Shown: in pieces, positions 42,741-43,236 of the stretch | Numbering within the stretch: the first letter of the stretch is position 1 | Layout of the letters: every line of letters starts with the position of its first letter | NCBI RefSeq assembly: GCF_013315695.1 | Contig: NZ_CP054353.1 | Direction: 5' to 3' (one strand) | From: Escherichia coli | Lineage (GTDB): Bacteria; Pseudomonadota; Gammaproteobacteria; Enterobacterales; Enterobacteriaceae | DNA length: 64,000 nucleotides | The notes under the pieces: model-generated | The model's input: only the letters and a program-made list of their open reading frames with translations | Databases searched by the model: none | What the model was told of the DNA's origin: nothing | Translations under genes and position numbers: made by a program

Positions 42741-42827
42741 AATGCAATATAGACTTAATAATTTCTTACAAAGTCTATTATTAATACCGTAGATATTTAT
42801 TCATCTTACACTATGCTCCAAAAAGCA

Positions 42828-42850
42828 AAAACCCGCCGAAGCGGGTTTTT
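42828..42850. terminator. Bidirectional rho-independent terminator (yhaC on plus, rnpB on minus)
   Basis: AAACCCGC-CGAA-GCGGGTTT perfect hairpin flanked by T-run on plus and A-run (T-run on minus). Confidence 0.7.
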
Positions 42851-42859
42851 ACGTAAAAC

Positions 42860-43236
42860 AGGTGAAACTGACCGATAAGCCGGGTTCTGTCGTGGACAGT
42901 CATTCATCTAGGCCAGCAATCGCTCACTGGCTCAAGCAGCCTACCCGGGTTCAGTACGGGCCGTACCTTATGAACCCCTATTTGGCCTTGCTCCGGGTGG
43001 AGTTTACCGTGCCACGGACTGTTACCAGCCGCGCGGTGCGCTCTTACCGCACCCTTTCACCCTTACCTGATCCCGCTTGCGCGGGCCATCGGCGGTTTGC
43101 TCTCTGTTGCACTGGTCGTGGGTTTCCCCCCCAGGCGTTACCTGGCACCCTGCCCTATGGAGCCCGGACTTTCCTCCCCTCCGCCCGTCTCCCCCGAAGA
43201 GGACGACGACGAAGCGGCGACTGTCTGGTCAGCTTC
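42860..43236 (-). ncRNA. rnpB: RNase P RNA (M1 RNA)
   Basis: Reverse complement reads GAAGCUGACCAGACAGUCGCCGCUUCGUCGUCGUCCUCUUCGGGGGAGACGGGCGGAGGGGAGGAAAGUCCGGGCUCC... through ...GGUCAGUUUCACCU, the 377-nt M1 RNA. Confidence 0.9.

Follow-up and report, generated by a model that had tools for sequence, protein, structure and literature searches.

The perfect hairpin that separates the convergent genes yhaC and rnpB in this Escherichia coli DNA is the classical "T1" intrinsic terminator of rnpB, an element that was already known, and it is very likely that any capacity it has to act in two directions is incidental to yhaC. The window referred to throughout is the whole stretch of 64,000 nucleotides that was analysed. 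The identity, position, structure and comparative pattern of the hairpin come from this analysis, and what is said of forward termination and of processing is drawn from the literature. Descriptions of the rnpB terminator go back to the early 1980s, synthetic biology uses it as a standard part, and bidirectional terminators are themselves a well-known class. The finding matters little in itself, since it concerns an ordinary, known element and holds nothing that would surprise a specialist.

The features of the yhaC-rnpB region are as follows.

41565-42740, plus strand: yhaC-family ORF of 391 aa, AT-rich, convergent with rnpB (ORF list and annotation)
42749-42778, plus strand: weak AT-rich hairpin just past the yhaC stop, -6.5 kcal/mol, without a U-tract
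42798-42826: segment homologous to the junction of the K-12 113-bp units (ATTCATCTT...CCAAAAAGC), which is the edge of the AT-rich yhaBC island (alignment)
42820-42831, minus strand: rnpB-sense U-tract UUUUUGCUUUUU, directly after the GC core (terminator scan, and tail score of 5.18 with d = 37.3)
42827-42836: left stem arm, AAAAACCCGC
42832-42836 paired with 42841-42845: GC core of five GC pairs, extended by five A-T pairs
42837-42840: loop, CGAA
42841-42850: right stem arm, GCGGGTTTTT
42846-42850, plus strand: yhaC-sense U-tract UUUUU, followed by ACGUAAAAC (tail score 4.66, d = 21.6; putative function)
42851-42859, minus strand: start of the 3' trailer of the pM1 precursor, GUUUUACGU, running from the mature end to the hairpin and removed in processing
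42860-43236, minus strand: rnpB, M1 RNA (RNase P RNA class A), 377 nt when mature (Rfam RF00010)
43244-43272, minus strand: sigma-70-like element GTGACA, 17 nt, TATACT, the putative rnpB promoter (consensus scan, 10/12 matches)

The hairpin and the end of rnpB

The sequence-only reading had proposed that rnpB and yhaC converge on one bidirectional terminator, formed by a perfect hairpin between an A-run and a T-run. Its 20-mer, AAACCCGCCGAAGCGGGTTT, is indeed present at 42829-42848, and the runs are there as described, with five A at 42827-42831 and five T at 42846-42850. Because these five-base runs are complementary, the perfect stem measures 10 bp and not 8, and the hairpin read from the window sequence is AAAAACCCGC-CGAA-GCGGGTTTTT at 42827-42850. 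The proposed distances, about 10 nt past the M1 RNA 3' end and about 90 nt past the yhaC stop, agree with those found: 9 nt (42851-42859) lie between the stem and the mature end, and 86 nt between the stop (42740) and the stem. With two mismatches allowed, AAACCCGCCGAAGCGGGTTT is unique in the window, and it was found 0 times in 100 shuffles. The hairpin folds at -15.9 kcal/mol (z = -2.9) on the plus strand and at -19.4 kcal/mol (z = -3.5) on the minus strand, and is still present when folded in contexts of 91-130 nt. On the two strands the GC core alone accounts for -7.8 and -8.7 kcal/mol, and the extended stem for -13.1 and -14.0 kcal/mol.

There are 8 places in the window with a perfect hairpin of 10 bp or more, as compared with 0.43 per shuffle; the hairpin studied here is non-random, yet it is one of a common class of element. 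Others with a symmetric A-run and T-run and at least 10 bp lie at 24136-24163, 6326-6351 and 50297-50322, and GAAGCCGCC-TTTTCA-GGCGGCTTC at 14344-14367 is situated between the convergent ORFs 12902-14320(+) and 14418-15500(-). The perfect hairpin at 2566-2597 has a REP-like appearance. Terminators that are shared or symmetric are common in the window.

The Rfam model RF00010 is matched over its full length (model positions 1-367 of 367) at 318.6 bits, the gathering score being 100, and rnpB is annotated at the same locus in the identical record NZ_LR898874. In the rnpB sense the hairpin has the form of an intrinsic terminator, with a GC-rich stem-loop of five GC and five AU pairs. A U-tract directly 3' of the stem is found in both directions (UUUUUGCUUUUU on the minus strand, UUUUUACGU on the plus strand); in the rnpB sense 10 of the 12 positions of the tract are U, and the consensus terminator scan calls the minus strand as a terminator. 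The 24-nt hairpin sequence is identical in E. coli K-12 and in Nissle 1917. The registry part J61048 corresponds to this rnpB-T1. J61048 has been described as a very strong terminator (PMC2991278). Cambray et al. 2013 measured rnpBT1 of K-12 as a terminator and noted that an extended outer structure may form when its U tail pairs with the A-stretch upstream (PMC3643576).

The sigma-70-like element at the other end of the gene stops 7 nt upstream of the M1 5' end, as placed by Rfam. Its -35 hexamer overlaps the stop codon of garK (43269-43271), and garK and rnpB are co-directional. Transcription reading through from the gar operon would thus run into rnpB, and the terminator scan of the window found no terminator-like site between the two genes.

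A polymerase transcribing rnpB would make the GC-core hairpin, followed by UUUUUGCUUUUU, and would release pM1 with a short 3' trailer, which RNase E and exonucleases would then trim back to the mature end at 42860. Lundberg and Altman reportedly put this trailer at about 36 nt in 1995. A trailer of that length would presumably set the primary rnpB end near 42824, within the U-tract. M1 RNA is indeed made as the precursor pM1, which is processed by RNase E (PMC10126417), and this recognised substrate could be taken to mean that the hairpin is first of all a processing or stability element, shielding pM1 from exonucleases until RNase E cuts, with termination secondary. In keeping with such a role, the hairpin is always removed, the mature end being the one seen at steady state. 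The role is compatible with termination, however, and the 10-of-12 U tract after the hairpin and the use of the same sequence elsewhere as a stand-alone strong terminator make it extremely unlikely that shielding is the principal function.

Transcript-end data from K-12 must be read with this processing in mind. The dominant rnpB 3' end in K-12 Term-seq, at 3270216, is the processed mature end and not the hairpin (Adams et al. 2021, supplementary file 1), and steady-state 3'-end mapping would therefore falsely seem to refute a known terminator. In processed stable RNAs such as M1 the primary 3' end is hidden, and for this reason Term-seq alone cannot confirm or refute terminators adjacent to them.

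The yhaC gene and termination from its side

The ORF that converges on rnpB is annotated as a YhaC family protein in strain MSB1_4I, whose sequence is 100% identical to the window over 42500-43400, an interval that was matched in 5425 of 5426 complete genomes. The gene order in the MSB1_4I record is tdcA(-), tdcR(+), yhaB(+), the YhaC-family gene(+), rnpB(-), garK(-), garR(-). GC content is 28-36% in the yhaC/yhaBC island as against 52-59% for rnpB and the gar genes, and a Pfam search of YhaC and YhaB returned no domain. The pair yhaB-yhaC has been classed as a young operon (PMC12218254), and K-12 yhaC holds a 706-bp "promoter island" to which H-NS binds in every ChIP data set (PMC3661553). 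Nissle 1917 keeps only pseudogene fragments of yhaB and yhaC, 93 bp and 63 bp long respectively, and its spacer and hairpin are unaltered.

The geometry proposed for the opposite strand is borne out. The plus-strand gene yhaC ends at 42740 and the minus-strand gene rnpB at 42860, so that the hairpin stands between convergent transcription units, and no other canonical hairpin-plus-U-tract lies in the 119-nt spacer. The weak hairpin at 42749-42778 is also kept in K-12 and Nissle 1917 and is not a canonical terminator. The A-tract 5' of the stem mirrors the U-tract, and A-tracts upstream of terminator hairpins are an accepted hallmark of bidirectional terminators (PMC12207403). In plus-strand RNA the five-GC-pair core is followed by UUUUUACGU, and a simple score in the style of d'Aubenton-Carafa is positive for both strands (+21.6 in the yhaC sense, +37.3 in the rnpB sense). 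Since both strands carry a GC core with five U and both scores are positive, reverse termination is mechanically plausible, and we infer that appreciable termination in the yhaC sense is rather probable at this hairpin. Polymerases arriving from yhaC would probably be stopped too, less efficiently, by the GC core and UUUUU that the opposite strand encodes, and in this strain any yhaC transcription would then in practice end at the hairpin, which would also insulate rnpB against antisense transcription.

It could be argued instead that the hairpin stops rnpB transcription only, and that the rare polymerases from yhaC are halted by Rho, H-NS roadblocks or head-on collision with the very dense rnpB traffic, or else continue into rnpB and yield antisense RNA. 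The tail on the plus strand is short, with five U and then ACG, it scores below the minus strand, and the consensus scan of the window missed it. The miss arises because the scan extends the stem through the A-T pairs, so that the T-run is absorbed and no tail is left. Expression of rnpB is also extremely high, some 24 million Term-seq reads falling at its 3' end in K-12 (Adams et al. 2021), and collisions at hairpin sites can drive termination (bioRxiv 10.1101/2022.10.23.513370). Against this, a core of five GC pairs with five U directly after it is a standard signal of an intrinsic terminator, its d lies above zero, and the hairpin stays the minimum-energy structure within a 130-nt yhaC 3' UTR context. 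A terminator that works on rnpB only therefore seems somewhat unlikely.

Rho does act on the minus strand in this region of K-12, a point that also favours a one-way hairpin. The Rho-region table of Adams et al. 2021 contains a minus-strand region antisense to yhaC at 3269111 (about 42040 in the window), where reads fall from 2111 to 34 in untreated cells and from 2831 to 107 with bicyclomycin, for a Rho score of 2.35. Some minus-strand RNA must thus be present within yhaC, even behind several terminator copies, and it could come from rnpB read-through or from spurious promoters in the AT-rich island. In the yhaC sense, no 3' end is listed in K-12 Term-seq under three growth conditions (Adams et al. 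2021). The TERMITe supplements have no entry for rnpB, yhaC or garK, and a joint mention of rnpB and yhaC was not found in the literature searched.

The variable spacer and the form of the hairpin across species

The yhaC-rnpB spacer measures 119 nt in the window and 613 bp in K-12. The K-12 spacer contains 3.5 tandem 113-bp units, each made up of a pseudo rnpB 3' end with its own copy of the hairpin, and also has REP elements and a degenerate hairpin relic beside yhaC. This array, at 2287-2679 of the E. coli C600/K-12 locus (L001), is absent from the window, and the 113-bp repeats are said to have been described originally by Reed and Altman in 1983. The window aligns to both ends of the K-12 spacer, 42709-42820 with 107/112 identities and 42821-42900 with 79/80. 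Between them 506 bp of the K-12 spacer are missing, and the pairwise breakpoint at 42820/42821 falls within the CCAAAAGCAAAAAC homology common to the units. A K-12-type array would have at least two tandem modules, and the window has one hairpin and one copy of each rnpB 3'-end motif.

Strains of E. coli vary in this respect. An 81-nt probe across the hairpin was found at 8028 places in 4738 genomes, with 1 to 8 per genome and a median of 1. In a spread sample of 60 genomes, 37 had one place, nine had two, 12 had three and two had four. This length polymorphism makes the yhaC-rnpB spacer a VNTR-like locus, of which the window has the minimal allele. When the K-12 spacer was compared with Rfam at a permissive threshold, only RNase P exceeded the gathering score, the other matches being sub-threshold and either terminator-like or REP-like.

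The right edge of the yhaBC island falls within the homology to the module start, AAGATGAAT on the rnpB strand, after which the sequences diverge (42798-42826). This suggests that the island abuts, or interrupted, an old copy of the module. We also considered whether yhaBC might be an integrative element bracketed by att-like duplicates. This idea was unsupported, as neither a second pseudo rnpB 3' end nor a further copy of the rnpB 3'-end motifs is present in the window.

For the wider comparison the rnpB 3' end was scanned in one genome per species and the downstream sequence then read, giving 115 loci with at least 70 nt downstream of the rnpB 3' end. The GC-core hairpin with flanking A-run and T-run is present in 82 of these 115 loci, most commonly in the form A(n)-CCC(C)GC-TTCG-GCGGG(G)-T(n)GCTTT. 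The mean A-run is 2.56 where the downstream gene is co-directional (n = 39) and 2.62 where it is convergent (n = 16), both counts being about 1 too low, as the core definition absorbed one A-T pair, and the orientation being a crude call from the first ORF of at least 200 aa. The A-tract/hairpin/U-tract form is thus kept across the Enterobacterales in either downstream orientation, and neither the A-run comparison nor Nissle 1917, which keeps the hairpin without yhaBC, associates the symmetric form with a convergent context. As the A-run is equal in both orientations, the symmetric shape is to be seen as a property of the rnpB terminator itself.

These data bear on the idea that the hairpin is the physiological terminator of both the yhaC mRNA and pM1, its A-tract being maintained for both directions. 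That the annotated genes converge 119 nt apart, that the spacer has a single canonical hairpin-plus-U-tract with a positive plus-strand score, and that A-tracts mark bidirectional terminators (PMC12207403) would all accord with such a dual use. But the A-tract is equally long before a co-directional gene, the hairpin is unaltered in Nissle 1917 where yhaBC has been deleted, K-12 has 613 bp and several hairpin copies between yhaC and rnpB, and yhaC is H-NS-bound, with no yhaC-sense 3' end in the K-12 Term-seq list. We therefore regard dual use as quite unlikely, although selection for insulation in E. coli specifically may still be compatible with the comparative argument. Of the shared terminator that had been proposed, the rnpB half stands, this being the known T1 whose identical K-12 element was measured as a terminator, and so does the opposite-strand geometry, with its convergent genes, sole canonical hairpin and d = +21.6. 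A meaningful sharing with yhaC looks unlikely, the comparative data suggesting that the hairpin lies beside yhaC by coincidence.

The rnpB T1 terminator with an incidental second direction remains the preferred explanation. On the comparative evidence, termination of yhaC looks like a by-product of an AT-rich island adjoining rnpB. A young, AT-rich and H-NS-bound yhaBC island would simply happen to abut a symmetric rnpB terminator, and the 119-nt spacing would be one allele of a spacer that varies among E. coli strains.

The pseudo-3'-end module is not confined to K-12. Of the 82 loci with the GC-core hairpin, 25 have it beyond the true terminator, in both Enterobacteriaceae and Erwiniaceae. 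Its layout is GATGAATGACTGTCCAC, a variable middle of 21-23 nt, GGCTTAYCGGTCAG, the species' own P1-like end and a terminator. The flanks match the real rnpB end of the species, and the distinct 21-23-nt middle stands in place of GACAGAACCC. A structured RNA was considered and rejected, RNAalifold on 30 modules giving -4.4 kcal/mol and no compensatory pairs. As to origin, the modules may have arisen by gene conversion or may be relics of integration. The module loci, and those with a long imperfect hairpin, are listed here.

L005, L008, L022, L024, L032, L034-L038, L046, L051, L060, L061, L064, L066: module loci
L070, L075, L084, L087, L102, L104, L114, L117-L121: module loci, continued
L029 and L037: long imperfect hairpin AAAACAATACGTTGGTGTGTCTCAGG...ACACCAACGGTTG after a module
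L053, about 12550-12470, minus strand: long hairpin replacing T1 (also in L010, L017, L042, L072, L076, L108, L123)

In at least eight species T1 is replaced after the rnpB 3' end by another conserved sequence with a long imperfect hairpin (AAAACAATACGTTGGTGTGTCTCAGG...ACACCAACGGTTG). In L053 a LysR-like gene and an MFS-like gene follow this hairpin. At loci of this type the long hairpin could serve as an alternative terminator, or it could mark where an inserted element ends.

It is conceivable, and in our view very unlikely, that the modules of pseudo rnpB 3' end plus terminator form a selected fail-safe array of terminators or insulators for the very strong rnpB promoter. Were this true, the present strain would be a natural single-terminator allele in which a lone hairpin insulates both ways, blocking leakage from rnpB as antisense into yhaC and island transcription as antisense into rnpB, and expression or fitness would change measurably with the number of modules. 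Where a strain has just one copy, that hairpin would presumably be the only intrinsic barrier in either direction. Natural single-copy spacer alleles could also serve as test beds for terminator redundancy and insulation.

Comparison with known terminators

The closest known system is rnpB T1 of K-12, which is the same element. The hairpin, the U-tract and the distance to the mature M1 3' end are identical in the window. The difference lies in what follows, which in K-12 is 3.5 tandem 113-bp modules and REP elements, whereas the window has one copy.

The rnpB hairpin differs from the classical bidirectional terminators in that its partner, yhaC, is silent and recently acquired, and in that the A-tract does not track convergent context. 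One of the classical cases is found between tetA and orfL of Tn10, and tonB/P14 is another. In such terminators, Tn10 among them (Schollmeier 1985, as cited by Cambray et al. 2013), a GC-rich hairpin with an A-tract and a U-tract likewise lies between convergent units; termination was shown both ways there, whereas here experimental support exists for the rnpB direction only.

The overlapping bidirectional sites revealed by SEnd-seq, for which ynaJ-uspE is the model (Ju et al. 2019), are likewise hairpin sites between convergent genes, at which polymerases could meet head-on. Those sites are described as unlike intrinsic terminators and as weak in either direction alone (bioRxiv 10.1101/2022.10.23.513370). 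The rnpB hairpin, in contrast, is in one direction at least a strong intrinsic terminator of canonical form, and the traffic that meets it is extremely asymmetric.
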